Assembly: GCA_964016885.1 (NCBI GenBank)
Contig: OZ024740.1
Coordinates: 335,420,001-335,484,000, forward strand
Direction of reading: 5' to 3'
DNA from: Eledone cirrhosa
Taxonomy: Eukaryota
Length of the DNA: 64,000 nt
Positions 27,301 to 62,481 of the stretch are shown one piece after another. Below the pieces are notes generated by a model. It was not told where the DNA came from and searched no databases. It worked only from the letters and a program-made list of their open reading frames with translations. Position 1 is the stretch's first letter; each line of letters begins with the position of its first letter. The position numbers and the translations under genes were made by a program.

Positions 27301-27308
<8 letters not shown>

Positions 27309-30300
27309 GATCGAGTATCGAAAAATCGGCGCACGAGTTAACGAAAAACGAAATCCGATATGAGCGGCAGAGGGCTCAATAATTCAGATGAATCAGAGCT
27401 ATAACTATCGTTAAAATACCGTCACATATAGAACAAGTCTACAATCAACCATACGATTTAAAATCGATAAAGGAAGATTCGGGCCAAACAGATAAAAAAT
27501 ATCAATAAAACAATACGTCAATAATTTAAATGAATGTAAAATCATACCCGGACCCACTAGAAAGGTGTTAAATCTAGCTTCATGGGTTTCTGTAAATCCT
27601 TAGACAGTACTCTATCAGCTCACATATAAATATAAAAGCCTACTAGAATAAGTGGAATGGAGTTTACGTTGTCAACGAGTTTTATCCTGGCGGCAAAGGA
27701 GTCAACTAGCGGTGAAAAACGCACATGGCATTAGACAAGGGAGATGACCCCTATATCCGCGAAAATAATTCGAGTGAATGTGGAAATACACATATCGAAT
27801 TAGAGTGCTCAATAGACATGTTAAAATAAAACAAAAGCTATTCATCACTCAATAGAATCGACAAAATATGAGCAATAAAATTAACTGGTGGATAGCTATG
27901 TCCAGAGCTAAATATATTAGAAAGATCGAGTATCGAAAAATCGGCGCACGAGTTAACGAAAAACGAAATCCGATATGAGCGGCAGAGGGCTCAATAATTC
28001 AGATGAATCAGAGCTATAACTATCGTTAAAATACCGTCACATATAGAACAAGTCTACAATCAACCATACGATTTAAAATCGATAAAGGAAGATTCGGGCC
28101 AAACAGATAAAAAATATCAATAAAACAATACGTCAATAATTTAAATGAATGTAAAATCATACCCGGACCCACTAGAAAGGTGTTAAATCTAGCTTCATGG
28201 GTTTCTGTAAATCCTTAGACAGTACTCTATCAGCTCACATATAAATATAAAAGCCTACTAGAATAAGTGGAATGGAGTTTACGTTGTCAACGAGTTTTAT
28301 CCTGGCGGCAAAGGAGTCAACTAGCGGTGAAAAACGCACATGGCATTAGACAAGGGAGATGACCCCTATATCCGCGAAAATAATTCGAGTGAATGTGGAA
28401 ATACACATATCGAATTAGAGTGCTCAATAGACATGTTAAAATAAAACAAAAGCTATTCATCACTCAATAGAATCGACAAAATATGAGCAATAAAATTAAC
28501 TGGTGGATAGCTATGTCCAGAGCTAAATATATTAGAAAGATCGAGTATCGAAAAATCGGCGCACGAGTTAACGAAAAACGAAATCCGATATGAGCGGCAG
28601 AGGGCTCAATAATTCAGATGAATCAGAGCTATAACTATCGTTAAAATACCGTCACATATAGAACAAGTCTACAATCAACCATACGATTTAAAATCGATAA
28701 AGGAAGATTCGGGCCAAACAGATAAAAAATATCAATAAAACAATACGTCAATAATTTAAATGAATGTAAAATCATACCCGGACCCACTAGAAAGGTGTTA
28801 AATCTAGCTTCATGGGTTTCTGTAAATCCTTAGACAGTACTCTATCAGCTCACATATAAATATAAAAGCCTACTAGAATAAGTGGAATGGAGTTTACGTT
28901 GTCAACGAGTTTTATCCTGGCGGCAAAGGAGTCAACTAGCGGTGAAAAACGCACATGGCATTAGACAAGGGAGATGACCCCTATATCCGCGAAAATAATT
29001 CGAGTGAATGTGGAAATACACATATCGAATTAGAGTGCTCAATAGACATGTTAAAATAAAACAAAAGCTATTCATCACTCAATAGAATCGACAAAATATG
29101 AGCAATAAAATTAACTGGTGGATAGCTATGTCCAGAGCTAAATATATTAGAAAGATCGAGTATCGAAAAATCGGCGCACGAGTTAACGAAAAACGAAATC
29201 CGATATGAGCGGCAGAGGGCTCAATAATTCAGATGAATCAGAGCTATAACTATCGTTAAAATACCGTCACATATAGAACAAGTCTACAATCAACCATACG
29301 ATTTAAAATCGATAAAGGAAGATTCGGGCCAAACAGATAAAAAATATCAATAAAACAATACGTCAATAATTTAAATGAATGTAAAATCATACCCGGACCC
29401 ACTAGAAAGGTGTTAAATCTAGCTTCATGGGTTTCTGTAAATCCTTAGACAGTACTCTATCAGCTCACATATAAATATAAAAGCCTACTAGAATAAGTGG
29501 AATGGAGTTTACGTTGTCAACGAGTTTTATCCTGGCGGCAAAGGAGTCAACTAGCGGTGAAAAACGCACATGGCATTAGACAAGGGAGATGACCCCTATA
29601 TCCGCGAAAATAATTCGAGTGAATGTGGAAATACACATATCGAATTAGAGTGCTCAATAGACATGTTAAAATAAAACAAAAGCTATTCATCACTCAATAG
29701 AATCGACAAAATATGAGCAATAAAATTAACTGGTGGATAGCTATGTCCAGAGCTAAATATATTAGAAAGATCGAGTATCGAAAAATCGGCGCACGAGTTA
29801 ACGAAAAACGAAATCCGATATGAGCGGCAGAGGGCTCAATAATTCAGATGAATCAGAGCTATAACTATCGTTAAAATACCGTCACATATAGAACAAGTCT
29901 ACAATCAACCATACGATTTAAAATCGATAAAGGAAGATTCGGGCCAAACAGATAAAAAATATCAATAAAACAATACGTCAATAATTTAAATGAATGTAAA
30001 ATCATACCCGGACCCACTAGAAAGGTGTTAAATCTAGCTTCATGGGTTTCTGTAAATCCTTAGACAGTACTCTATCAGCTCACATATAAATATAAAAGCC
30101 TACTAGAATAAGTGGAATGGAGTTTACGTTGTCAACGAGTTTTATCCTGGCGGCAAAGGAGTCAACTAGCGGTGAAAAACGCACATGGCATTAGACAAGG
30201 GAGATGACCCCTATATCCGCGAAAATAATTCGAGTGAATGTGGAAATACACATATCGAATTAGAGTGCTCAATAGACATGTTAAAATAAAACAAAAGCTA

Positions 30301-30916
30301 TTCATCACTCAATAGAATCGACAAAATATGAGCAATAAAATTAACTGGTGGATAGCTATGTCCAGAGCTAAATATATTAGAAAGATCGAGTATCGAAAAA
30401 TCGGCGCACGAGTTAACGAAAAACGAAATCCGATATGAGCGGCAGAGGGCTCAATAATTCAGATGAATCAGAGCTATAACTATCGTTAAAATACCGTCAC
30501 ATATAGAACAAGTCTACAATCAACCATACGATTTAAAATCGATAAAGGAAGATTCGGGCCAAACAGATAAAAAATATCAATAAAACAATACGTCAATAAT
30601 TTAAATGAATGTAAAATCATACCCGGACCCACTAGAAAGGTGTTAAATCTAGCTTCATGGGTTTCTGTAAATCCTTAGACAGTACTCTATCAGCTCACAT
30701 ATAAATATAAAAGCCTACTAGAATAAGTGGAATGGAGTTTACGTTGTCAACGAGTTTTATCCTGGCGGCAAAGGAGTCAACTAGCGGTGAAAAACGCACA
30801 TGGCATTAGACAAGGGAGATGACCCCTATATCCGCGAAAATAATTCGAGTGAATGTGGAAATACACATATCGAATTAGAGTGCTCAATAGACATGTTAAA
30901 ATAAAACAAAAGCTAT
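27301..30916. repeat. Tandem array of a 615-bp unit, 5.9 copies, apparently identical
   Basis: Unit start attagaaagatcgagtatcg at 27301, 27916, 28531, 29146, 29761 and 30376. The last copy stops after 541 bp. (TA)n lies on both sides. Confidence 0.97.
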
Positions 30917-30947
30917 ATATATATATATATATATATAAGAAAATAGT

Positions 30948-31037
30948 CAGGACCCCTACGGCTGAGCTCCGGCCGTTTCGACAGCTAGATCCGAACTAGC
31001 TGTCGAAATGGCCGGAGCTCAGCCGTCGGGGTCCTGC
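30948..31037. repeat. GC-rich ~41-bp-arm hairpin; diverged inverted relative at ~32130-32232
   Basis: caggacccctacggctgagctccggccgtttcgacagctag-atccgaa-ctagctgtcgaaatggccggagctcagccgtcggggtcctg. Confidence 0.85.
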
Positions 31038-31176
31038 CTCTTTTCCTATTACCCACTCTACTACCCTAAGTATCGAGTACTATGGTGCGTTATGGTCCAC
31101 CTGGTATCTTACCACACCTTCTTTGTTGTTGTTATATATATGTATGTATGTATGTGTGTGTGTGCATATATATATA

Positions 31177-37980: not shown

Positions 37981-38111
37981 TATTTGACGCTGTTGCTGTT
38001 GTTCCTGTTTACGTAATCATTGTCCAAATTGCTTGTTGATGTTTTTGTTGATGATATTAAATAATACATCTCAAATAATAAAATTAAAATAACAACAATA
38101 ACAACAACAAT

Positions 38112-38161
<50 letters not shown>

Positions 38162-38165
<4 letters not shown>

Positions 38166-40641
38166 CAGAACCGCATGTTCGACAACAACCAGAAGATGCT
38201 GTTTGGACAGCTTGAGGGGAAAGAAAGAGGCACCGACTTGATCCCTGGGGCGGAACAAGCTAAAACATTCTGGAGAGGAATATGGGAGCAGGATGTTAGA
38301 CACAATGCCCAGGCAGGGTGGATTGAGACAGTACAGAGGGAGATCGGTGAGCAGGCACAGCAACAGACTGATTTGAGTATCACAGTTGAAACTCTTAAGG
38401 GGCAAGCCAAAAAACTAACCAACTGGAAATCACCAGGCCCAGATGGTGTGCAGGGGTATTGGATTAAACATTTAACATCCCTCCACCCGAAGCTGACGGC
38501 CATGTTCAATGACTGCTTGGTGTCGGGTGAGGTGCCAGAGTGGTTGACAAAAGGTACCACAGTTCTGATAATGAAAGACCGAATCAAGGGTAATGATGTT
38601 ACCAACTATAGACCTATCACATGTCTGCCCGTAATGTGGAAACTGTTGACGAGCATTGTGTCTGAGGAAATCTACCATCACCTCCACACAAACAACTTGT
38701 TGCCGGACGAACAGAAAGGATGCCGAAAGAAGTCACGTGGTACAAAGGACCAGTTGCTTATTGATAAGATGGTAATGGGGAATTGCAGGAGGAGACACAC
38801 TGATCTTGCCATGGGATGGATAGACTACAGAAAGGCATTTGACATGGTGCCTCATTCCTGGATCACCAAAAGCCTGGAGATCTTCAGGGTGGCAGATAAC
38901 ATCAGACAGTTGCTGGGCAGGAGTATGGGGTCCTGGGAGACAGAGTTGACATCAACTGGAGTATCCTTGGGAAGCGTGAAGATCAAGAGAGGTATCTTCC
39001 AGGGAGATAGCCTGTCCCCTCTGTTGTTTGTCCTTGCCCTGATGCCCTTGACCATTATGCTGCGAAAAGTGAGAGCAGGATACAAGTTGGGAAGGGGAGA
39101 GCTTACCATCAATCACCTCCTCTTCATGGACGATCTTAAGCTCTTCGGGAAAAGTGAGAAGGAGTTGGATGTGCTTGTTGACACTGTCCGTATTTTCAGC
39201 AGTGATATATGTATGCAGTTTGGTATTGGTAAATGTGGAGTCATTGTGATGAGGAGGGGTAGGTTGAGCAGAAGTAACGGGATCCAGATACCAACAGGTG
39301 AGATGATAAAGGAAATTGACTCTGAGGAAGGATACAAGTATTTGGGCGTTCTGGAGGCTGATGGCATAAAGAACAAAAAAATGAAGGAATTGTTAAGAAC
39401 TGAATACATTCGGAGAGTAAGGAGCGTATTGAAGTCACATCTGAACAGCAGAAATGCCATAAGCGCAGTAAATTCCCGAGCTGTGTCTATTATTAGGTAC
39501 AGTGCGGGAATTCTGAGATGGAATGTTGCTGAACAAAAAGAAATGGATAGGAAGACTAGGAAGCTATTGACTATCTACAACATGTTCCACAAGAGGAGTG
39601 ATGTCGATAGACTCTACCTAAGGAGATCTGAGGGTGGAAGAGGTCTTATCAGCATAGAGGACTGTGTTCAGATGGAGAAAAACAACCTATACAAATACGT
39701 GACCTATAGTAAGGAGCCAATGCTCAGAGCTGTACTGAAGGAGGGGACAGTAGGCCAGGGGATACCCAAGGAGGAAATAACATCAAGGAGGAAGAGCAGC
39801 CTTAAGGGAAAATCCCTTCATAGTACCTTCTTTGAGAAAACTGAATTTAGAGATCCACAGACATGGAACTGGTTGAGAAGAGGAGACCTCAAAAAGGCTA
39901 CAGAAGGAATGCTAATGGCTGCGCAGGAGCAGGCCCTCAAAACGAAGTGGTTGAAGCACCATATCTACAAGGAGGAGGCTAGCCCACTGTGCAGGATCTG
40001 TGGAGAGAGAGAGGAAACTGTGGCTCACATTGTGTCCGAGTGTAAACACCTAGCCCAGACCCACTATAAGGGCTGGAGACACGATGTGATGGGCAGGGTG
40101 ATCCACTGGCACCTGTGCAAAGTAAACAATCTACCACATTCTGAGAAATGGTATGAGCATAGGCCAGAGGCGGTGATGGAGAACAGTCAGGTGAAGGTGC
40201 TGTGGGATTTTAGGATACAGACGGACAAAAAACTGGAACACAATAGACCTGACCTGGTGGTTGTGGACAAAGAAAAAAGATCGTGCCTGATTGTGGATGT
40301 GGCCTGCCCGTTCGACACGAGAGTGCAAGAGAAGGAGAGGGAGAAAATTAACCGATACCAGGACCTAAAGTGGGAGGTGAAAAGGATTTGGAACTGCCAT
40401 GAAGTCAAAGTGATCCCGATTGTCATAGGCGCACTGGGGACTATCTCCAAAGGTTTCCAGGGATGGTTAAAGAAAATCGGCCCCTTCACGCTTTTTGGAA
40501 CGCTTCAAAAGGCATGCTTGCTTGGAACGGCAAGAACCCTCCGATACGTCCTGAATATCTGAGGCTGCAGGTAGTGGCTTGATATTCAATCCAACGGACT
40601 TTCCAGTTAACCAACATCAATGACTGAGATTCAAGGAATAA
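38162..40641 (+). mobile_element. R4/Dong-clade RLE non-LTR retrotransposon, family A copy 1 (5'-truncated), in (AAT)n
   Basis: Contains the intact ORF 38175..40562 and an ~80-bp 3' UTR. (AAT)n lies on both flanks (38114-38163 and 40649-40672). Confidence 0.93.
38175..40562 (+). CDS. Reverse transcriptase + CCHC finger + restriction-like endonuclease (N-terminally truncated)
   Basis: Motifs KSPGPDG, YRPITCL, IDYRKAFD, GIFQGDSLSP, LFMDDLK, YKYLGV, CRIC...ETVAHIVSEC, RHD and NRPDLVV...IVDVACP. Confidence 0.92.
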   Translation: MFDNNQKMLFGQLEGKERGTDLIPGAEQAKTFWRGIWEQDVRHNAQAGWIETVQREIGEQAQQQTDLSITVETLKGQAKKLTNWKSPGPDGVQGYWIKHLTSLHPKLTAMFNDCLVSGEVPEWLTKGTTVLIMKDRIKGNDVTNYRPITCLPVMWKLLTSIVSEEIYHHLHTNNLLPDEQKGCRKKSRGTKDQLLIDKMVMGNCRRRHTDLAMGWIDYRKAFDMVPHSWITKSLEIFRVADNIRQLLGRSMGSWETELTSTGVSLGSVKIKRGIFQGDSLSPLLFVLALMPLTIMLRKVRAGYKLGRGELTINHLLFMDDLKLFGKSEKELDVLVDTVRIFSSDICMQFGIGKCGVIVMRRGRLSRSNGIQIPTGEMIKEIDSEEGYKYLGVLEADGIKNKKMKELLRTEYIRRVRSVLKSHLNSRNAISAVNSRAVSIIRYSAGILRWNVAEQKEMDRKTRKLLTIYNMFHKRSDVDRLYLRRSEGGRGLISIEDCVQMEKNNLYKYVTYSKEPMLRAVLKEGTVGQGIPKEEITSRRKSSLKGKSLHSTFFEKTEFRDPQTWNWLRRGDLKKATEGMLMAAQEQALKTKWLKHHIYKEEASPLCRICGEREETVAHIVSECKHLAQTHYKGWRHDVMGRVIHWHLCKVNNLPHSEKWYEHRPEAVMENSQVKVLWDFRIQTDKKLEHNRPDLVVVDKEKRSCLIVDVACPFDTRVQEKEREKINRYQDLKWEVKRIWNCHEVKVIPIVIGALGTISKGFQGWLKKIGPFTLFGTLQKACLLGTARTLRYVLNI

Positions 40642-40671
40642 CGGTGGCAATAATAATAATAATAATAATAA

Positions 40672-43637
40672 TGATTTCATTTATTAGCCACCAGGGCCGA
40701 CATGTAGGGGACGATACAAAGACAGGGACAGTGGGGGTTTACAATAAGTGTAAAAGTGGAGTAAAAGTGCACAATGGCAAGACTAATTTAACAATGAAAA
40801 TATAAAAATATAAAATAAACTATGCATAAATATAACAAAATAAATTCCCCGATAGGGGGTATACGACCCTGGGGTGCTTCAGGTACCCCACCAATCCTGA
40901 ACCACCCTGCGCTTCTAGGGCACCCAGGAGAGCACCCCTCTCCTCAAGTTAGCCAGCCTATAGGCGCATGGTCAGAGTAGGCCCATTCACACGAGCCATT
41001 CTCGCCACATTCACCGACCTTATAGCAAATCTATTGGGGGGCAGCACTTCTCTCTCCACCCTCACCCTCCTTTCCAGGTGAAACTTGAAGAAGTTGATGA
41101 GGGATTGGCCGAAGAGAAAAGTGTCTGTCTTTAGTCCTTTCAACCTCGTCCACCATATAATCTCTTTCGCAACTGCCACCAGACAGAGGAAAATTTCCTG
41201 CTCTTCCTGACCTAAAGAAGGTGGCGGCTCGATCTTCACTATGGACCCGGCCGATAGCCGGATTCGTTCCACACGCGACAGTAGCTGTTCGACATAACTC
41301 CACAAGTCAGTAATGCACGGACATTGGACAAGTGCGTGCAGAACGGTTTCGTCGTTCTGTGCGCTTCTTGGGCAGGTCCGTCTGACAGCACTTCCGTGTC
41401 TGTAGAGTTTATCCCGAACCGGCAGTGCCCCCCGGTAGCACTGCCAAGCGAGGGATTTCTGGAAATTGTCCATCGTCCCCGGCTCAAAAGTCCTCCCGTA
41501 CAGACTGGTCAGTTCGACTTCGTCGAGGCCCAAAACTTCTCCGAGTGTGTCATCGCACTTGCCCACCACTAATCCTCTATAGAACTCGAGAGTGGAAGTT
41601 CCACTGATCGCATTGCCCGCTTGGTAGAGGGCTGTGAGTGCCTGGCAACATTCCAGGTGCCAGTCACCCAGTCTCAGTCTCTTCTTGACCCAGGACTGCA
41701 GCTCAGTCAAAGAAATGAGCTCCGGAAAGGCCCGTCTGATAAACGGCGACCACACCTGTTCACCATTGAGGCAGAATATCTGGAGATGTCGCAGCCTCAA
41801 CGCATGTCTACGCATCATTAGCCACGACATGCCCAGCCCTCCGCGTAGAGGGTGCTGGCAGCAGATGGACCGCCTCATCAACGGAACTTGTCTCCTCCAC
41901 AAGAATTTGAAGAGGAGCCGTTCCAACTTCACGAGGCGCGGACGGGGGCAAGGCACGACGGTTAGGCGGTAGTAGATGACGGACGCGATGTACGCATACG
42001 CCACCTCCGTGCGACCTTTCAGTGATAGCTTCCTCCCAGCCCATTTTTGGGTGAGACTGGCTACTCTGCTCGTTACCTCGTCCCAATTCTTTCCACCTGG
42101 AGGTCTGGTCCGAACCAAACCCCAAGCAACTTTACCGGTCCGTCTGTCCAGTGCCCCACGACGCTGTTGGACGGCATGGGCTTGCCTCTCCAGATTCCGA
42201 GCTGCAAGCCCACCGACTTTTCCGGGTTAAGTTTGGCTCCTGTCAACCTTTCATATTCCTTCAATAAGGTGCTGACCACCTCGATTTCTGAGGTGTTCGA
42301 CACCATCACGGTGATGTCGTCCGCATAAGCCGACACCGCCTTTCCATGTCCCGGTTCGAGCGGGATGCCCTGCAACAGCTCCAGCTTCCGCAGTAAAGGC
42401 TCGAGAGTCAATACGTACAGAAGGGAAGAGAGAGGGCACCCTTGACGGACCGATCGGGAGAGCCGAAATGGTTCCGAGAGGTGGCCATTAACCTTGACCA
42501 CCGAGCGTGTGCCGCTGTGCATTGCAACGATCCAGCTTCTAAAGACAGGGCCGAAGCCAGCTGCTTTGAGGACAAACTCCAGATACCGATGGTCGACCCT
42601 ATCGAATGCTTTCGATTGATCTAAATTGATCAGTGCCCCACCGAAGCCAGCTTAACACCCTACCCTCTCTATGATGTATCGCATGAGGTGGAGATTGTCG
42701 TGTATGGACCTGGCTGGGATTGCGCAAGTTTGCGCCTCCCCAACCAAATTCTCGACGACAAGCGCCAATCTCTTTGCTAACACCTTGGCCAAAATCTTAA
42801 ACTCTGTGTTGAGCAGAGTTATGGGCCTGAAGTTGTCTAATGTATCCCTCTTGTTCTCGTCTTTCCTTATCAGCGTCACCACTCCCCTGCTCACAGAACT
42901 GGGAATACTCCCATTCTGCTGCCAGTTGCTGTAGAGTGCTTCGAGGAGTTCGGAGAACAAGTGTGGCATATTTACGTAAAGCTCGTAGGGCAGGCCATCC
43001 AAACCGGATGACTTGCGCCTCATGCAGCCGACAATGGCGTCCTGAATTTCGGCTGAAGTAATCAGCCTTTCGCAGCGCTCAGCGTCGACCGTCGAGATGC
43101 GCGGCAAGCCGTCAAGGTAGGGAATGAAATCCGCTACTCTCTCTGTCTCGCCACTCTCCCTGAACAACCGAGCAAAGTGCTGGCGAAAGGCCTCACACAC
43201 CCGCTTGGAATCGCTTATCTCGTGTCCGTCTCGGTCCGCCAAAGACCGAATTGTGGTTTTATTACCACGCTGCGCCTCCTCCACGCGGGCGCATCGAACA
43301 GCTTTAGTTCCCTCGTTTCTCAGCGCACGCGCCTTAGCTCTGACAATGCAACCTTCGTGTTTGGCATTGAAGAAATGGTCTAATGCCATTCTCGCCGCTA
43401 ATGCCATTCTCGCCGCTAATGCCATTCTCGCCACTACAAATAGCCTCGTCTAACTTATCTACCAGCTCCCCTCCTTTCTATTTTTCTCTAACGCTAGTTC
43501 TTTGCTGAACTCTATCGAAGTTACTCTAATCTCTCTTTTGAGAGCCCCCCACCATCTGTTGTTGATGATCCCCCCTGTCAACTTTTGCTTAACTAAATTG
43601 TTGACTCGGTCCCTGTAAGCCTTACGTGCCGGAAATG
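40672..43637 (-). mobile_element. Tx1-clade LINE, subfamily B, 5'-truncated, with frameshifted ORF2
   Basis: Pieces 42652..43434 (GLDGLPYE, FRPITLLN), 42073..42522 (VRQGCPLS, AYADDIT) and 40958..42118 (zf-RVT). The 3' end reads gtggctaataaatgaaatc(ATT)n. Confidence 0.9.
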
Positions 43638-43904
43638 ACAATAATAATAATAATAATAATAATGCTTTCTTTATTAACCACAAGGGTCTACATAAAGTAG
43701 ACATTAAGGACAATACAGGAAAATACAGGGCGGGACAAATGGGAAATTCTGCGTGTAGAAAACAAGAAACAGAGGATGTAATAATTGAACAATGAAAAAA
43801 TTCCCCAATAGGGGGGAGACTTCCGAGGGACATTCGTGGAGAAAGCCCATTAAAAATCCACAGTGACCCTGACCACCAGGTCAAGTGCCCTCTCCCAGTT
43901 TTCC

Positions 43905-46900
43905 ACCTTTAATTTACAGACACATATCCAGAGTAGGCCCATTCACTCGGGCCATTCTTGCCTATCTCACCCATCTTTCAACAAAATGCTGGGAAGGGGG
44001 CTTCCTTTTCTACCCTGATTTTCCTTTTTAAATGAAATTTGAAAAAGTTAATCAGGGCATCACCGAAGAGGTAAGTGTTCGTCTTCAGCCCTTTCAAACG
44101 TGTCCACCATACTATCTCTTTCGCCATGGCCACCAGACAGATAAAAATTGCCTGCCCTTCCCAGCTCAGATGATAGCCGAACAGCAGGTGTTCGACATAA
44201 ACCCACAAGTCAGCAATGCTCGGACACTGGACGAGTGCGTGCAGGACGGTTTCGTCGCCCTGCGCGCATCTCGGACATGTCCGGCTGACGGCAGCTCCAT
44301 GCCTGTAGAGTTTATCCCGAACTGGCAAAGCTCCTCGGTAGCACTGCCAGGCCAGGGATTTCTGGAAGTTGTTCATAGGCCCCGGCCCGAAAGTTCTTCC
44401 GAAGAGATTGGCTAGTTGGTTTTCGTCGACGCCTAGAGTTTCCCCAAGTACGTCCTCGCTCTTCCCCTCCACTAATCCTCTATAGAACGCCAAGGTGGAG
44501 TTTCCACCGATCACATTGCCCGATTGGTCGAAGGCTGTGAGCGCCTGAAGTCATTCCAGTCTCCAAGCGGTCCCTCTCGGTCTTCGCTTGACCCAGGACT
44601 GCAGCTCCGTCAAGGAGACGAGCTGGGGAAAGACGCGTCTAGGAAACGGTGACCACACCTGATCACCGTCGAGGAAGAGGTGGAGATGTCGTAGCCTGAG
44701 CGCGTGTCTGCGCATCATCAGTCACTGCATGCACAGCCCTCCACGTAGCGGGTGTTGACAGCAGAGTACCGCCTGACCATCAGAGCGCGTCCCTTCCACA
44801 AAAAGCGAAAGAGCAAACGCTCCAGCGCAGTCAGGCGGGGCTTGGGACAAGGTACGACGGTCAGGTGGTAGTAGATGACGGACGCGATATACGCGTTAGC
44901 CACCTCCGCTCGACCCTTCAGGGATAGCTTCCTCTCGGCCCATTTCTGGATGAGAGAAGCCAACCTGCTCGTCACCTCGTCCCAGTTTTTGTCCGTCTAG
45001 AGATCCGGACCGAACCAGACCCCGAGCAATTTAACTGGTCCGTCCGTCCAGCGCCCGACGACGCTGTTGGACGGCATGGACCTGCCTCTCCAGGTGTCGA
45101 GCTGCAGGCCCAGTGACTTTTCCTGGTTGATCATTGCTCCTGTCACCGCTTCGTATTCTCTTAGTGCCGATCGCCTCGATCTGTTTGGCGTTCGACACCA
45201 CTACGGTGACATAGTCCGCATATGCTGACACGGATATTCCGCATCCTAGTTCGCGCAGGACCCCCCTCAACGTCTCCAGTTTGTGGAGTAATGGCTCGAG
45301 AGTCAATACGTACAAGAGGGACGAGAGGGGAGATCCCTGGCGGTCCGGGCTCATGATGTTGAACGGTTCCGAAAGGTGACCGTTTATCTCACCACAGAGC
45401 AGATGTTGCTGTGCATGGCAGCGATACAGCAGCTGAAGACGGGCCCGAAGCCAGCCGACCTCAGGACTGCCGCTAGGTAACGATGGTCGACCCTATCGAA
45501 AGCTTTCGACTGATCTAAATTGATCAAGGACCCACCCGTGCCAGGTTCCCTAGCTACCCTCTCTACGATGTATCGCATGAGGTGGAGGTTGTCATGGATG
45601 GATCTGTCAGAAATGGCGCATGTCTTCGCCTCTCCCACCAGACCCCCAACGACAAGCGCCAACCTCTTTATTAGCACCTTGGCCAAAATCTTGAACTCTG
45701 TGTTTAGCAAAATTATGGGCCTAAAATTATCTATGTTATCCCCCTTGTTCGGATCCTTTCTCAGCAGCGCCACAGCTTCTCGGCTCACAGAGCTGGGAAT
45801 TCTCCGGTTCTGTTGCCAGTTGCAGTAGACGGCCAAGCGGCCTCCGAACAAGTTTGGCATCTGTACGTAAAGTTCATAGGGCAGACCATCCAAACCAGGC
45901 GATTTACCCCTTGTGCAGCTAGTCATTGCCTCCCGTACTTCAGCGGATGTTATCGGCTTTTCGCAACACTCCGCCTCAGTGGCCGAGAGCCGCGGCAGTC
46001 CGTCGAGGTAGACATTAAAGTCCATCGCTCGATCCGGCCCGCCGCTTCCCCCGAACAACTGAGCGAAGTCTCGCTGAAAAGCTTCACACATTTGCCCGGG
46101 ATCGAGTAGCATGCGCCCGCCGTGGTCCACCAAAGACCGGATCGTGGCTTTGTTGCCGCGGCGCGCCTCCGCCACTCGGGCCCATTGAACGGCTCTCGTC
46201 CCCTCGTGTCTGAGAGCACGCACCCTAGCTCTGACAACGCAGCCTTCGTGCTTTGCATTGAAGAATTGGTCAAGGGTCAATTTCGCCGCAAGTACGTCGG
46301 TCGCGATACCTTTGCTAAGCGCCTCGTCTAATTTTCTAACTAATTCTTCCTCTGCTCTATTTTTCTCTATTGCTAAAGCCTTACTAAACCTAATGGACTC
46401 TATTCTAATTGCTCTTTTCAGAGCAAACCACCACTTGTTGTTGACGATGGCCCCAGTCAACGCCTGCTTAACTAGTTCGCTAATCCGGTCTCTGTAGGCC
46501 TTGCGCGCTGGTAAGGACGCGTTTAGCTTCCAGTAGCCGTGTCCTCGTCTATGAAGCCTATCTAAGTCAAGCACACAGATCACGAATTTGTGGTCCGTGT
46601 AGCTGACTATCTTGAATTGTGGACAGCCTATGCTAGACCTATCTATTTCTCTACAAAATACTCTATCTAGATATGATCTGGGTGACACTATTCGATTTGT
46701 CCAAGTCCATATTGGCACATTCGGGAAATCCAATCGGTACCTGTCAGACAGTTCAAAATGCCTGAGCAGGTTGGTGAGGCTCTTGCACCCTCCTCCCCTA
46801 TCCGCTAATCCCACACAATCCGAGCGTGCATCTAAGATCCCGTTCCAGTCGCCCACTAACACTAAAGAGCGGGACGTTCCAAGAAAGGTCTCCAGACGCC

Positions 46901-47270
46901 GGAAGAAATCAGGCCGCCCTGCTCCTGTCGGGGCATAGACGGCCACTAGCCTGAAAGGTTGCCCGTCTCCGCTGGTCACGTCTAGCACCACCAACTCACC
47001 TTCTTGATCCAGGAAGATGGCCCGTAGTGCGAGATTCAAACCTCTCCGAAAAAGCACAGCAAATTCACCCCCCGATCCCGGACGGCTGGGAGATGCGTAC
47101 ACATCGTAGCCGCCGAAGATCGTTGCGAAGGCCCGTGCTTCGGAGATTCTGGTCTCGCTGATGGCCACGATATCTATGTTAAGTGACCTGAGGTCGTTGA
47201 GTAGGTGGCCCTGCTTCCATGACGACCCCAAGCCACGCGCATTTATGCTGCCTATTCTGAGTGAGGTCAT
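43905..47270 (-). pseudogene. Tx1 ORF2 (APE endonuclease-RT-zf-RVT), open for 628 aa and then frameshifted
   Basis: Motifs LRIGSINARGL, DIVAISET, LVAVYAP, VGDWN, SYLDRVF, TDH, GYWKLN, KSPGLDG, DQSKAFDRV, RQGSPLS, AYAD and CPRC...ETVLHALVQC. Confidence 0.88.
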
Positions 47271-47304
47271 GTTGAAATGGAGTGGAAAAGATGGGAAAGA
47301 CCAC

Positions 47305-49204
47305 TTACCTTACTTCTCGTAGAGGAAGGATGGTTTGTCCATCCTTTTCACTGCTTGTGGCCTCCTCCGGAAGGATGTCCTTATAAATCCTCCTGGAGAG
47401 TGTTTGTCGGAATTTTTGTTTTAGTGTCGTGTACGTTTTCTGTGTGATGCGAGTGATTTGTATGCGTGGAGGTGATGTGTACTTTTGGGTTGTTGTGTAG
47501 TCTTTTTCTGTGATGCTGGTGTTGTATTGCATGTAGTGTAATAATTGATTGTTGTTCAAATTTAGTGCTGTGTAGTGTGTATCGTTTTGGTTGTTTTGTT
47601 TTGTTTGCGTTTGTTGTGGGTTTGTTTCTGTTACGCTTTTTGATGACATTTGTGGTGTTGATGATGGTGGTGTTGGGGTTAATGATGGTGATGGTGTTGG
47701 TGTTTGTGGTGATGGGGTTGGTGATGCTGGTGTGGATGGTGGCATATCTGTTCTAACCTTTTTGTTTGATAATTTATTTGTTTCCCTCTGTATTTTGTTT
47801 TTGGAGGGGGAAGGAAGAGAATTTTTTCGTTTTGGGCTTCTTTTTTTCTTTTTTCCTGATACCGTTTCCCACTCCTCGTCGTCACAATCTGTCTCCAGTT
47901 GCGATAAGCCGGGGAGTGGAAAATCCTCCACATGCGTTGGTTTTGGTTGTGGCGTGGTGGATGGTGTAGGCGCTGGTGCTAGTTCTGGCGCGTTGGGTGG
48001 TGGTGGTGTTGGTTTTGCTACTGTTGCTGGGGTTGTTGCTGTTACATTTGCTTCTGTTGTTGCTGCTACAGTTGTTGCTGCCATTTCTGCTGCTGGTGGT
48101 GTTGATGGTTGAGTCACTGGGGTGGGTTATAGATGTGGCCTCAACCTATTAGCCAGAGGGCAGAAAGCCCTTAGGTGGGTTCCTTCACCACAAACGACAC
48201 ACCTAGGTCTTCTGCCCTCGACGATTACGGTGAGGTGGCTGCCGTCAGTGAGGTCTATTACCTCTGGGATCTCCTCAATGCTATTATGGTCCGCTTGGAT
48301 CAGAAGCTCCATCCCAGATCCGGACCAGTTCTCCTGCTTTTCTTTCGCTATTTCAATCATCTTGGTGTTGGCCTCGATGCTGGCGAGGACGGCAGCCATT
48401 AGCCAGGGAATTTCGATGGCTAGTGGAACGTGGGTCACCCTGATCTTCACAAGTCTCTGGCCACAATAGTTTGGGACGTGTGTGAAGTTGTCACTTCTTA
48501 ATGGGGCCATGGACTGTTCTCTGGCCTCCTGTGGTGTTTCAAAGAACACGTCCACGGTTCCATACTTCTGCCCACGTCTGATGTGGGGTTTTGTTGCCCA
48601 CACATGTCCCAAAGCTTTTTGGATTTGGGACTCGGATACCCATTCCCCTCGGCGCGATTTTATGTTTATTGTCCTATAAGACACAGTGCATAGGCGACGT
48701 TGCTCCATTTTATTAGGTGGGGGGGGGGGCTGACTCTGTACCCATCTTTCTTTACAATTCCTTTCGCTTCTTCTAATTCCTCCTGAGTTACCTGGATCGC
48801 TTCGCACGTTTTTGCTACTCTGGCAAAACTCAGGGCAGTTTTCTTAATTTCATTGTTGCTGTTGTTGTTATCGTTATTTTTGCTATTGATAATTTTAGTT
48901 TCAGTTGTGGTGGTGATGGCGTCAGTGGTGTTCGGTGTGGAAGAGTTCATTTTGTTTGAATTCATTTCGATATCACGAGTTAATTTATTTTTTCTTTTGT
49001 TTCTGTTGTCGCTGTGGTGGTGGTAGTGGCGGCTTTAACACCTGCAGTCATTGGTAATGGCGGGAAATGAACGTCGGCCTGAGACAAATTTAAAATATTG
49101 CTACTGCTTACATTTCCAGTGTTAACAAACGTAGCAATATTTACAATGGTGGTGTCGGTGTGCGGTGTTGGAGTGTGTGGAAGGAGTGACTCTGAGACAT
49201 CCAT
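47305..49204 (-). pseudogene. Tx1 ORF1 (gag-like zinc-knuckle protein) split into four pieces
   Basis: Pieces 48980..49204, 48666..48965 (SFARVA), 48127..48807 (CVVCGEGTHLRAFC) and 47305..48117 (Pro/Thr-rich, WETVSGKKKKR). At least one break lies at a G homopolymer (~48719-48729). Confidence 0.8.
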
Positions 49205-49419
49205 GATTTTTCAAAGAAAAATTTTTGTTTGATAATTATAAAAAGTTTAAATTTTGGACTCAAGGCCCCAATATTTTTGAGTTTCCTTTTCAGAAATCAA
49301 TGTATGTGCACTTATATACAGTTAACAATAAAAAATTTCCATAAATGGCAATTTTAAACAACTGAAAATAACAAACCTTTGCGGAGCTCACGATGATACG
49401 ATTTACTACGTAGGTCGCC

Positions 49420-49491
<72 letters not shown>

Positions 49492-49492
<1 letters not shown>

Positions 49493-52400
49493 GAACTGTT
49501 ATGCAATGCTACCTGAAAAGTAACCCCAAGGAGAGGGGCTACAGGAGACGGATGCATAACATCTGGAACGAGATTGGTTTATTTAAATTAGATGAACAAA
49601 AATTGGCCGGGCAGGCTCGGGTAATAAGAACTAATGGGTGGATAAGCGAGCTGGAACTGGAGGAACTGAGCAGAGAGAATGGCTTGGAGATGGCGGGTGT
49701 AGTATGCCAGACAAGCGAGCCGGTGGGAAATGAAGGTGAGGAGGTCCTGAGAACGGAGGAACCACCCGAAGCAGACAATGATCTGAATACTGAGATAAAT
49801 AATACCTGGAACAGAGATACGGCCACTGAGGAGATGAATGCTGACGGGCTAGGACAAGATTCGGTTGACATCCTAAATTTAGTGGTAGATGAGTTGAACA
49901 ATGATAGTGGGAGACCTATGAACCTAAGATTTGTAGACAGGAAAAAGTTAAAAGAAACAACAGCTAAGGTAAACAAAGTCATCCCATACCTTGAGGCGAG
50001 GAGCCTTCACCAGTGCAACAATATCCTCAGAGCAACAGCAAATACGGTGAGGAAACTACTTGGTATAAAAGCGAGAGGAAACAACAGACAAGAAAGAGCA
50101 GAGCCGTGGTGGAAGAAGCGACTGAGTGGGCAAATCGGGGAAATGAGAAATGACATAGGAAAGCTTGAGTCACTACTGAATGGGACACTAAAAAACATAG
50201 GCACTAAAAATAGACTGGAAATAAAATACAAAACTAGGAGTAAAAAGCTAAATATTATCATAGAGGAATTGAAGCAACGCATTGTAGCAAAGAGTGCAAA
50301 AATCAGGCGATACGAGAACAGAATCAGTCAGTATAAACAGAACCGCATGTTCGACAACAACCAGAAGATGCTGTTTGGACAGCTTGAGGGCAAAGAAAGA
50401 GGCAACGACTTGATCCCTGGGGCGGAGCAAACTAAAACATTCTGGAGAGGAATATGGGAGCAGGATGTTAGACACAATGCCCAGGTAGGGTGGATTGAGA
50501 CAGTACAGAGGGAGATCGGTGAGCAGGCACAGCAACAGACTGATTTGAGTATCACAGTTGAAACTCTTAAGGGACAAGCCAAAAAACTAACCAACTGGAA
50601 ATCGCCAGGCCCAGATGGTGTGCAGGGGTATTGGATTACACATCTAACATCCCTCCACCCGAAGCTGACGGCCATGTTCAATGACTGCTTGGTGTCGGGT
50701 GGGGTGCCAGAGTGGTTGACAAAAGGTACCACAGTTCTGATAATGAAAGACCGAATCAAGGGTAATGATGCTACCAACTATAGACCTATCACATGTCTGC
50801 CCGTAATGTGGAAACTGTTGACGAGCATTGTGTCTGAGGAAATCTACCATCACCTCCACACAAACAACTTGTTACCGGACGAACAGAAAGGATGCCGAAA
50901 GAAGTCACGTGGTACAAAGGACCAGTTGCTTATTGATAAGATGGTAATGGGGAATTGCAGGAGGAGACACACTGATCTTGCCATGGGATGGATAGACTAC
51001 AGAAAGGCATTTGACATGGTGCCTCATTCCTGGATCACCAAAAGCCTGGAGATCTTCAGGGTGGCGGATAACATCAGACAGTTGCTAGGCAGGAGTATGG
51101 GGTCCTGGGAGACAGAGTTGACATCAACTGGAGTATCCTTGGGAAGCGTGAAGATCAAGAGAGGTATCTTCCAGGGAGATAGCCTGTCCCCTCTGTTGTT
51201 TGTCCTTGCCCTGATGCCCTTGACCATTATGCTGCGAAAAGTGAGAGCAGGATACAAGTTGGGAAGGGGAGAGCTTACCATCAATCACCTCCTCTTCATG
51301 GACGATCTTAAGCTCTTCGGGAAAAGTGAGAAGGAGTTGGATGTGCTTGTTGACACTGTCCGTATTTTCAGCAGTGATATATGTATGCAGTTTGGTATTG
51401 GTAAATGTGGAGTCATTGTGATGAAGAGGGGTAGGTTGAGCAGAAGTAACGGGATCCAGATACCAACAGGTGAGATGATAAAGGAAATTGACTCTGAGGA
51501 AGGATACAAGTATTTGGGCGTTCTGGAGGCTGATGGCATAAAGAACAAAAAAATGAAGGAATTGTTAAGAACTGAATACATTCGGAGAGTAAGGAGCGTA
51601 TTGAAGTCACATCTGAACAGCAGAAATGCCATAAGCGCAGTAAATTCCCGAGCTGTGTCTATTATTAGGTACAGTGCGGGAATTCTGAGATGGAATGTTG
51701 CTGAACAGAAAGAAATGGATAGGAAGACTAGGAAGCTATTGACTATCTACAACATGTTCCACAAGAGGAGTGATGTCGATAGACTCTACCTAAGGAGATC
51801 TGAGGGTGGAAGAGGTCTTATCAGCATAGAGGACTGTGTTCAGATGGAGAAAAACAACCTATACAAATACGTGACCTATAGTAAGGAGCCAATGCTCAGA
51901 GCTGTACTGAAGGAGGGGACAGTAGGCCAGGGGATGTCCAGGGAGGAAATAACATCAAGGAGGAAGAGCAGCCTTAAGGGAAAACCCCTTCATAGTACCT
52001 TCTTTGAGAAAACTGAATTTAGAGATCCACAGACATGGAACTGGTTGAGAAGAGGAGACCTCAAAAAGGCTACAGAAGGAATGCTAATGGCTGCGCAGGA
52101 GCAGGCCCTCAAAACGAAGTGGTTGAAGCACCATATCTACAAGGAGGAGGCCAGCCCACTGTGCAGGATCTGTGGAGAGAGAGAGGAGACTGTGGCTCAC
52201 ATTGTGTCCGAGTGTAAACACCTAGCCCAGACCCACTATAAGGGCTGGAGACACGATGTGATGGGCAGGGTGATCCACTGGCACCTGTGAAAAGTAAACA
52301 ATCTACCACATTCTGAGAAATGGTATGAGCATAGGCCAGAGGCGGTGATGGAGAACAATCAGGTGAAGGTGCTGTGGGATTTTAGGATACAGACGGACAA

Positions 52401-59414: not shown

Positions 59415-62050
59415 CTCATCGTCATCACCATCAGTAGCACTACCCTCCCTATTACCTTCCATGTCCTTATAGTAATCATCATCACCATCATCACCATCAG
59501 TGGCACTACCCTCCCTATTACCTTCCATGTCCTTATAGTAATCATCATCACCATCATCACCATCAGTGGCACTACCCTCCCTATTACCTTCCATGTCCTT
59601 ATAGTAATCATCATCACCATCATCACCATCAGTAGCACTACCCTCCCTATTACCTTCCATGTCCTTATAGTAATCATCATCACCATCATCACCATCAGTG
59701 GCACTACCCTCCCTATTACCTTCCATGTCCTTATAGTAATCATCATCACCATCATCACCATCAGTGGCACTACCCTCCCTATTACCTTCCATGTCCTTAT
59801 AGTAATCATCATCACCATCATCACCATCAGTAGCACTACCCTCCCTATTACCTTCCATGTCCTTATAGTAATCATCATCACCATCATCACCATCAGTGGC
59901 ACTACCCTCCCTATTACCTTCCATGTCCTTATAGTAATCATCATCACCATCATCACCATCAGTAGCACTACCCTCCCTATTACCTTCCATGTCCTTACAG
60001 TAATCATCATCACCATCATCACCATCAGTGGCACTACCCTCCCTATTACCTTCCATGTCCTTACAGTAATCATCATCACCATCATCACCATCATCACCAT
60101 CATCACCATCAGTGGCACTACCCTCCCTATTACCTTCCATGTCCTTATAGTAATCATCATCACCATCATCACCATCAGTAGCACTACCCTCCCTATTACC
60201 TTCCATGTCCTTATAGTAATCATCATCACCATCATCACCATCAGTGGCACTACCCTCCCTATTACCTTCCATGTCCTTATAGTAATCATCATCACCATCA
60301 TCACCATCAGTAGCACTACCCTCCCTATTACCTTCCATGTCCTTATAGTAATCATCATCACCATCATCACCATCAGTAGCACTACCCTCCCTATTACCTT
60401 CCATGTCCTTACAGTAATCATCATCACCATCATCACCATCAGTGGCACTACCCTCCCTATTACCTTCCATGTCCTTATAGTAATCATCATCACCATCATC
60501 ACCATCAGTGGCACTACCCTCCCTATTAACTTCCATGTCCTTATAGTAATCATCATCACCATCATCACCATCAGTAGCACTACCCTCCCTATTACCTTCC
60601 ATGTCCTTATAGTAATCATCATCACCATCATCACCATCAGTGGCACTACCCTCCCTATTACCTTCCATGTCCTTATAGTAATCATCATCACCATCATCAC
60701 CATCAGTAGCACTACCCTCCCTATTACCTTCCATGTCCTTACAGTAATCATCATCACCATCATCACCATCAGTGGCACTACCCTCCCTATTACCTTCCAT
60801 GTCCTTATAGTAATCATCATCACCATCATCACCATCAGTGGCACTACCCTCCCTATTAACTTCCATGTCCTTATAGTAATCATCATCACCATCATCACCA
60901 TCAGTAGCACTACCCTCCCTATTACCTTCCATGTCCTTATAGTAATCATCATCACCATCATCACCATCAGTGGCACTACCCTCCCTATTACCTTCCATGT
61001 CCTTATAGTAATCATCATCACCATCATCACCATCAGTAGCACTACCCTCCCTATTACCTTCCATGTCCTTACAGTAATCATCATCACCATCATCACCATC
61101 AGTGGCACTACCCTCCCTATTACCTTCCATGTCCTTATAGTAATCATCATCACCATCATCACCATCAGTAGCACTACCCTCCCTATTACCTTCCATGTCC
61201 TTACAGTAATCATCATCACCATCATCACCATCAGTGGCACTACCCTCCCTATTACCTTCCATGTCCTTATAGTAATCATCATCACCATCATCACCATCAG
61301 TGGCACTACCCTCCCTATTACCTTCCATGTCCTTATAGTAATCATCATCACCATCATCACCATCAGTAGCACTACCCTCCCTATTACCTTCCATGTCCTT
61401 ATAGTAATCATCATCACCATCATCACCATCAGTGGCACTACCCTCCCTATTACCTTCCATGTCCTTATAGTAATCATCATCACCATCATCACCATCAGTA
61501 GCACTACCCTCCCTATTACCTTCCATGTCCTTACAGTAATCATCATCACCATCATCACCATCAGTGGCACTACCCTCCCTATTACCTTCCATGTCCTTAT
61601 AGTAATCATCATCACCATCATCACCATCAGTGGCACTACCCTCCCTATTAACTTCCATGTCCTTACAGTAATCATCATCACCATCATCACCATCAGTGGC
61701 ACTACCCTCCCTATTACCTTCCATGTCCTTATAGTAATCATCATCACCATCATCACCATCAGTGGCACTACCCTCCCTATTAACTTCCATGTCCTTATAG
61801 TAATCATCATCACCATCATCACCAACAGTAGTATTACCCTCCCTATTAACTTCCATGTCCTTATAGTAATCATCATCACCATCATCACCATCATCACCAT
61901 CATCACCAACAGTAGCATTACCCTCCCTATTACCTTCCATATCCTTATAGTAATCATCATCACCATCATCACCATCAGTGGCAACAACAGTAGCATTACC
62001 CTCCCTATTACCTTCCATGTCCTTATAGTAATCATCATCATCACCATCAT
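59415..62050. repeat. 66-bp minisatellite, ~40 copies, degenerating rightwards to ~62470
   Basis: The period is 66 (atgtcc at 59461 and 59527). One minus frame repeats the 22-aa unit DGDDGDDDYYKDMEGNREGSAT. Confidence 0.95.
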
Positions 62051-62481
62051 CATCAGCAGCAGCAGCGGCGGCGGTATCATGATCATCATCATCGTCGTCG
62101 TCGTCATCACCATCACCAGCAGCAGCAGCATTACCCTCGTTATTACCTTCAATATCCTTGTCGTAATCATCACCATCGTCATCATGATCATCATAATCAT
62201 CAGTAGCAGTAGCAGCAGCAGTAGCAGAAGCAGCGGCATTACTCGTCATTACCTTCAATGTCATTATTGTAATCATCACCATCATCATCATCATCATCAT
62301 AATCATCATCATCATCATCACCATCAACATAATCATCATCAGCAGCAGCATTACCCTCGTTATTACCTTCAATATCCTTTCCGTAATCATCACCATCATT
62401 ATCATCATTATCAGTAGCAGCATTACCTTTCTCATTACTTTCAATATCATTATCGTAATCACCATCATCATCATCATTATC

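Follow-up and report, generated by a model that had tools for sequence, protein, structure and literature searches.

A dispersed family of (TA)n-anchored tandem insertions in Eledone cirrhosa and its possible origin by rolling reverse transcription of a structured RNA

How does a 615-bp unit come to stand in several identical head-to-tail copies inside a (TA)n tract, with a copy number that is not an integer? The question is raised by a locus of Eledone cirrhosa on contig OZ024740.1, within the 64,000-nt stretch analyzed here (positions 335,420,001 to 335,484,000 of the forward strand; hereafter, the window). The first-pass annotation, made from the letters of the window, described a homogeneous, non-integer concatemer such as rolling-circle copying would leave, and named as candidate sources a retrozyme-like circular RNA mobilized by a Penelope-type reverse transcriptase (RT), extrachromosomal circular DNA, a young satellite, synthetic DNA, or an assembly artefact. 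Its description of the array is accurate. Identity at a period of 615 is exact over 27297-30916 (3620 bp, 5.886 copies), which comprises five full copies and a partial sixth, 100% identical throughout. The unit is A-rich (A250 T145 G114 C106; GC 36%), holds 26 CpG, has a longest stop-to-stop frame of 62 aa, and has no second copy elsewhere in the window; the microhomology noted at its junctions with the tract amounts to 5 nt (ATATA) on the left and TAT on the right. The array belongs to a real and young mobile element, polar, concatemer-forming and non-coding, that lies within an old superfamily with conserved structure. The reading that we favor, at a probability of roughly 0.6 for the circle and the helper jointly, is that such arrays would arise by target-primed rolling reverse transcription of one structured RNA circle of ~615 nt by a borrowed Penelope-like RT. 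Under this reading the plus strand would be the strand joined to the target 3' end, i.e., the first-made complementary DNA (cDNA), and the minus strand would be the RNA sense. The insertion and its targets are laid out as follows.

27252..27301, no strand: left (TA)n target tract, of which the final 5 nt (ATATA) match the unit junction; (TA)25 spans 27252-27302
27302..30916, plus strand: insertion, five full 615-bp units followed by unit bases 1-540
27302..27320, plus strand: fixed start, common to 770 (TA)-anchored insertions genome-wide
30917..30937, no strand: right (TA)n target tract, which a short TA microhomology connects to unit base 540

The start of the unit is fixed across the genome and the far end is not. 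A DNA search of the 3.0-Gb assembly gave 174 matches from the 24 of 394 candidate places that were scored. Among the arrays picked by identity alone, 23/24 begin at unit base 1 right after (TA)n, the remaining one lying against an N gap, and the far ends of all 24 fall at scattered unit positions. Exact TA-anchored starts at unit base 1 number 770 genome-wide, as against a single one for the control, an internal ATATA near base 131; internal unit-unit junctions number 1776 in two lineages together (A, the window's unit, and B, described below). The expectation of other loci with (TA)n flanks is thus borne out by hundreds of insertions, but that of circularly permuted start points is not. Likewise, a rolling-circle-type concatemer made from a monomer template in a TA target holds at hundreds of loci, while random extrachromosomal circular DNA does not fit 770 starts at one base. 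The flanks are unique at the loci retrieved. No published description of the family was found in the literature searched, with Repbase, Dfam, subscription journals and supplements outside that search, and metagenome and viral contigs gave no match to a conserved 20-mer.

A larger array set, made up of nearly all of the first 100 listed C1 starts plus other arrays, most of them chosen by the TA-anchored start pattern, shows the same polarity. Chains start at unit base 1-3 in 123/129 cases; a TA tract precedes 120 of these 123 starts and is at least 10 nt long in 113. Copy number among the 123 chains is below 1 in 39 and at least 10 in 15, with a maximum of 26.6. Closed far ends, 118 in all, occur throughout the unit with clusters at TA dinucleotides, and 73 of them enter TA directly. 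The first 60 ends looked uniform (p=0.33) and the full 118 are not (p=0.0008), because of short insertions and the clustering at TA sites. Where a TA-joined end has an internal template copy (23 ends), the mean microhomology is 2.0 nt, compared with an expectation of 0.97 nt (p=3.5e-5). Three loci (L214, L225, L227) are lone complete monomers with TA on both sides, ending at the junction. The median copy number falls from 5.4 in arrays less than 1% from the window's unit to about 1 in those more than 3% away (rho -0.43, n=101, C1 loci L056-L232). This points either to a loss of copies as arrays age or to more laps by the newest variant.

Variants within arrays indicate how many templates each insertion had. 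If one template is copied for many laps, its variants will appear in every copy; mixed arrays would be expected from a pool of templates, and inherited copy-specific variants from a multimeric parent transcript. In the 28 arrays with at least five full copies (279 copies, compared with the window's unit), 66 substitutions are in every copy of an array, 25 are in a single copy, and five are intermediate. Ordered by their changes (0 to 57), the array haplotypes are for the most part nested, as rungs of one ladder that is shared across chromosomes, and just one single-copy variant recurs between arrays, in two of 40. Neither mixed arrays nor inherited copy-specific variants are seen, and the dominance of all-copy variants argues that each array was copied from one monomer. 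Thus, repeated copying of one monomer template per insertion is very probable. Furthermore, single-copy changes number 0.92 per copy in five arrays whose array-wide differences average 26.6, and 0.135 per copy in the 17 arrays identical to the window's unit. The lineage therefore changes much faster than its genomic copies, which suggests an error-prone copying cycle; homogenization or coexisting lineages could contribute.

Some variants alternate along one array, at ten such mosaic sites in nine arrays plus one in L050. At base 363 of L078, T stands in 19 copies and is followed by A t A A A A t; at base 304 of L047, C and A are interspersed along the array; at base 381 of L031, successive copies read T, G, A, A; and the mosaic site of L206 has three alleles. 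The change is to A on the plus strand at 6/9 mosaic substitution sites versus 5/44 single-copy changes (p=1e-4, a post hoc comparison tallied by hand, with L206 excluded because it involves an indel). Insertion of A opposite abasic sites or 8-oxoguanine in a minus-strand template, re-read at each lap, would give mosaics of this kind. The mosaic sites are as a damaged template base, re-read lap by lap, would give.

The window's unit, lineage A (615 nt), has relatives, which were found by successive searches and named B to G. Candidate counts, which are loose and possibly overlapping, are 2397 for B, 4808 for C, 3409 for E and 3409 for G; D and F were also found. Lineage B has a unit of 602 nt, and the six lineage units range from 602 to 619 nt at 49-79% identity. 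Most copies sampled from B, C, E and G have the homologous junction as their start, preceded by (TA)n, and they stand in short tandems, the older lineages mostly having 1-2 copies; unit beginnings are TTAG, ATAG, AATT or TATAATT. Structure is conserved as well. In five of the six lineage units the minus strand gives a better fold than its shuffled versions, and three parts of the unit stand out, given here for the first copy in the window.

27813..27904, minus strand: long conserved stem-loop adjoining the junction, recurring every 615 bp, with pair changes across four lineages
27374..27399, minus strand: second conserved hairpin, with 4/9 pairs changed on both sides and several minus-strand G-U pairs
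27546..27592, minus strand: central conserved domain, with an invariant AGAAAC, nested helices seen by eye in the alignment, and a splice-donor-like GGT at its edge

For the junction stem-loop, 15 natural copies from four lineages were compared. Ten of 21 pairs are changed on both sides and 95% of cells are paired; 0/500 shuffles reach the covariation score, and slid controls are 20-49% paired. One pair is U-G on the minus strand in 15/15 copies. The central domain is a candidate processing element. At its edge, the minus-strand homologues of 27546-27554 are the best or joint-best splice-donor-like match in 5/6 lineages (6-8/9 consensus positions), directly after CAG in E, F and G and 8-9 nt after YAG in A, B and C; the site also lies within a helix, and the lineages are not independent. 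Back-splicing at this site was considered and set aside, as it would not regenerate the 615-nt unit in lineages A-C.

A known ribozyme was sought in the family, as the first-pass annotation had advised. No Rfam ribozyme lies in the array, where no match begins inside the array body at E<=10 and two weak Rfam matches merely touch the left TA edge, and there is none in the units of A, B, C, E and G. The annotation had also found no canonical hammerhead core, and CTGANGA is indeed absent from the window's unit on either strand. Lineage C has one isolated CTGANGA per strand, with no GAAA after it on a relaxed scan, and fits made by hand to hammerhead and hairpin-ribozyme layouts failed.

These results bear on the comparison with known systems. 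Non-LTR retrozymes are described with a type I hammerhead in each repeat and a monomer of about 150-450 nt (PMC7229834), and their monomers are expressed as both linear and circular RNA; multimeric cDNA from circular RNA has been proposed for them, with Penelope-like elements (PLE) as proposed helpers (PMC7229834, PMC7761336, 10.64898/2026.07.22.740005). Like the metazoan non-LTR retrozymes so described, the present family consists of non-coding, low-GC (<50%), dispersed tandem repeats. Unlike them, it has no hammerhead and a unit of 602-619 nt, longer than their RNAs of about 170-400 nt, and the retrozyme descriptions available to us give neither a fixed (TA)-primed start nor a covarying stem-loop, both of which are features of this family. 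Because the hammerhead and size tests failed, the family is not a retrozyme member, although it works like a non-LTR retrozyme; the hammerhead that it lacks is the defining retrozyme feature.

Likenesses to PLE are of another kind. In published accounts, PLE insertions are truncated at the 5' end, form partial tandems and include inverted copies, and Naiads are biased to (TA)n (PMC8557442). Non-autonomous PLE of the Chlamys MRC1 type share with this family head-to-tail multicopy arrangement, 5' truncation and a microsatellite target, and Naiad and most Chlamys elements are reported without canonical hammerheads (PMC8557442). In contrast, the MRC1-type target is (C)n/(CA)n in algae rather than (TA)n (PMC8557442), and non-autonomous PLE are generally described as resembling an autonomous family at the 3' end; no such partner, by 3' end or pLTR, was found here among 50 PLE loci. 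PLE machinery is abundant in this genome (10,595 GIY-YIG candidates). The open reading frames (ORFs) encode RT and then GIY-YIG, with a C-x-CxxC linker, in TA-rich surroundings, and one sampled PLE family ends at an internal short TA motif and then a tail, like the minus strand of the unit. A match of 22-24 nt between unit bases 111-134 and one PLE family (E 0.04-0.14) appears by its coordinates to lie in or near the RT coding region and was taken as chance. Insertions with an inverted second arm of the twin-primed type are seen at two loci, L038 and L324; another 13 loci of E and 6 of G looked inverted, but this proved to be an internal hairpin matching itself, and they were dropped. At L324 (2160-2340), the inverted lineage-G arm joins a short TA-primed element a few bases before its 5' end, with 3 nt of microhomology. 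The join is either a template switch or a resected target, and as target resection can explain it, it was not accepted as proof of a shared helper.

Near-identical unit sequence also occurs in other samples. The stretch or part of it is present in 17 of 24 rows of public runs, from 13 studies, nine rows holding at least half of its words; no RNA run is among the runs listed with the stretch. Four runs from four organisms (X1, X2, X4, X6) were compared in detail, small-share rows being left out, and all four contain near-identical unit sequence. X4 has a single contig of 645 nt, the unit plus 30, with seven differences, in a form that fits assembly from a circle or a tandem. X2 has 564 nt with three differences that match a variant on the ladder of this genome, and X1 has pieces that are identical, along with a B-like form. 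For the near-identical units of X2 and X4, which lie on the same variant ladder, horizontal transfer is a possible source, as are close relatives; shared ancestry and transfer are indistinguishable here.

Taken step by step, the favored reading runs as follows. The minus strand of an existing array would be transcribed and processed to unit-length RNA by a non-hammerhead route. The 3' end of a nicked (TA)n would anneal to the junction UA motif beside the stem-loop, which would set the single start. One template is copied from <1 to 27 times, by a chemistry that would be reverse transcription. Copying breaks off at one of many scattered points, and the product is joined to the other end of the target, in most cases TA, with microhomology above chance. 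New copies would seed the next round, leading to a single ladder-like variant lineage. Of its parts, a minus-strand RNA template copied by target-primed reverse transcription is, to judge from these patterns, probable to a good degree.

Several observations weigh against this reading. The RNA circles of retrozymes have been demonstrated in the accounts consulted, whereas the RNA, the circle and the processing site proposed here are deduced from DNA sequence alone. With four deep lineages behind the covariation, cell counts exaggerate the number of events; in lineage F it is the plus strand that gives the better fold; and wobble-type cells in a no-GU fold, 29 on the minus strand versus 17, show a modest strand lean. 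The CTGANGA core is missing from lineage B as it is from A, on either strand. A six-lineage profile run against 50 PLE loci of the 10,595 candidates, with the Naiad type outside the sample, gave one match, of 120 bp, in L138, near the locus edge and far from the ORF; against 12 long-ORF Helitron loci of 3704 candidates it gave none, which leaves no partner named on that side either. Inverted copies, often found at the PLE 5' end, occur in 2/237 loci after removal of self-matches, as against 32/66 motif matches in fold-back form for a short TA-flanked family present in those loci. The TA target, which had been taken as a pointer to Penelope, is common to local Helitrons, which also abut TA tracts in this genome, and does not discriminate the helper. 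The correlation of age with divergence is not significant (rho 0.24, p=0.13, 40 arrays), and gene conversion or consensus errors could account for some mosaic sites, which were read from assembly sequence rather than raw reads. Finally, 4/118 far ends sit at the CTAA end of the unit.

The alternative that fares best is a linear RNA, along which the RT would jump from the 5' end to the 3' end of the same monomer, or which would be a multimeric parent transcript copied and later homogenized. A defined 3' end accounts for the single start better than a bare circle does, other ATATA sites being unused, and the 1-2 copies of older lineages, like PLE partial tandems, together with the drop of copy number with divergence, suit a linear template. 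Against it, junctions are exact through up to 26 laps, the purity of arrays for variants excludes jumping between different molecules, copy-specific variants are almost never inherited (the one recurrence in 40 arrays), and arrays could not regain length from truncated copies of a multimer. In DNA sequence alone, copying of a circle and repeated jumps along a single molecule look the same. On balance, we consider a linear template unlikely.

DNA rolling would produce the same geometry of a fixed first end, a concatemer and one template. Here a Helitron-like or other HUH transposase would nick a unit-length DNA circle at the junction, join the 5' end of the plus strand to TA, and roll without a working terminator. 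Non-autonomous Helitrons and Helentrons have a 5' TC and a hairpin with CTRR termination. The family resembles them in rolling-circle copying, in TA-tract insertion in this genome and in a hairpin near one end. Helitrons are abundant here (3704 candidates, with ORFs up to 1718 aa); several of the 12 loci end in hairpin-CTAG against TA tracts, one of them with a 5' TC, and the unit has a hairpin and CTAA/CTAG near the plus-strand 3' end. That end is used little: far ends at base 600 or later (CTAA/junction) are no more frequent than at TA sites elsewhere in the unit, bases 102 and 237 for instance, and CTAA is ignored by 114/118. The unit has no 5' TC, TC precedes the TA tract in just 11/120 starts, there is no CTRR stop, and no homology to the 12 Helitron loci was found. 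Moreover, whole-unit length and structure are conserved, the latter in three unit parts with G-U pairs on the minus strand; change in the lineage far outpaces that in its genomic copies; and inverted twin-primed insertions exist. DNA rolling appears unlikely to much the same degree as a linear template, and it stays a rival.

The RNA mechanism could be the same with a different helper, a long interspersed nuclear element (LINE) of the RTE, Dong-R4, CR1 or L1-Tx1 type in place of a PLE. The lack of PLE homology and the rarity of inversions are compatible with such a helper, and LINE RT ORFs occur within the window; these LINE groups are described as recently active in Octopus vulgaris (PMC13282606), which is relevant if the genomes are related. 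Partial tandems, TA bias and internal short TA priming nevertheless fit published PLE descriptions (PMC8557442) and local PLE 3' ends, and a LINE helper seems improbable. An assembly artefact, synthetic DNA or a locally expanded satellite, which the perfect identity within the window array would allow, can practically be dismissed given 770 starts, unique flanks at the loci retrieved, nested variants across chromosomes, a graded history down to 49% identity, and near-identical units in four public runs, among them a whole-unit contig in an independent run.

Other features lie beside the array or touch its possible helpers. Directly to the right is a short element unrelated to the insertion.

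30935..31049, no strand: neighboring short fold-back element, of a common TA-flanked family

The family of this neighbor (window 30935-31137; also L044, L058, L059, L066 and others) is very common and consists of short elements that have a defined 5' end and TA on their flanks. It takes the form of a fold-back palindrome in 32/66 motif matches, a count that includes overlapping loci and both arms, and no Rfam ribozyme matches it. Several LINE-type ORFs, on both strands, with RT, zf-RVT and apurinic/apyrimidinic (AP) endonuclease domains occupy window 38088-52290, and at 59422-62200 lies a minisatellite in which a 66-bp unit is repeated 37 times and each strand has frames open for ~1000 codons. 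Elsewhere in the genome, high-scoring Helitron Rep domains recur every about 100-150 kb in the same orientation (C19, C20, C27, C16), which suggests very large tandem units.

The PLE transposition cycle is described as still undefined, and animal retrozymes are proposed to propagate through multimeric cDNA made from RNA circles (PMC7761336, PMC8557442). In the present family the model can be tested on hundreds of insertions that are very young and share a fixed start, with arrays that are pure and variants that can be followed lap by lap. The family shows a single-step route to dispersed multi-kilobase tandem arrays, and searches based on the hammerhead would miss it. Its six lineages, with a structure backed by covariation, are a place to seek a new processing RNA motif or RT-recognition element. 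More tentatively, and with less confidence than in the RNA template itself, we suggest that the lineages may represent a superfamily, old yet still active, of structured RNA circles of ~610 nt that have no known ribozyme and would parasitize Penelope-like RT, be processed by a new self-cleaving motif or by host splicing and ligation, and leave arrays that record the laps, damaged bases included. If true, this would be genomic evidence of rolling-circle reverse transcription in an animal germ line.
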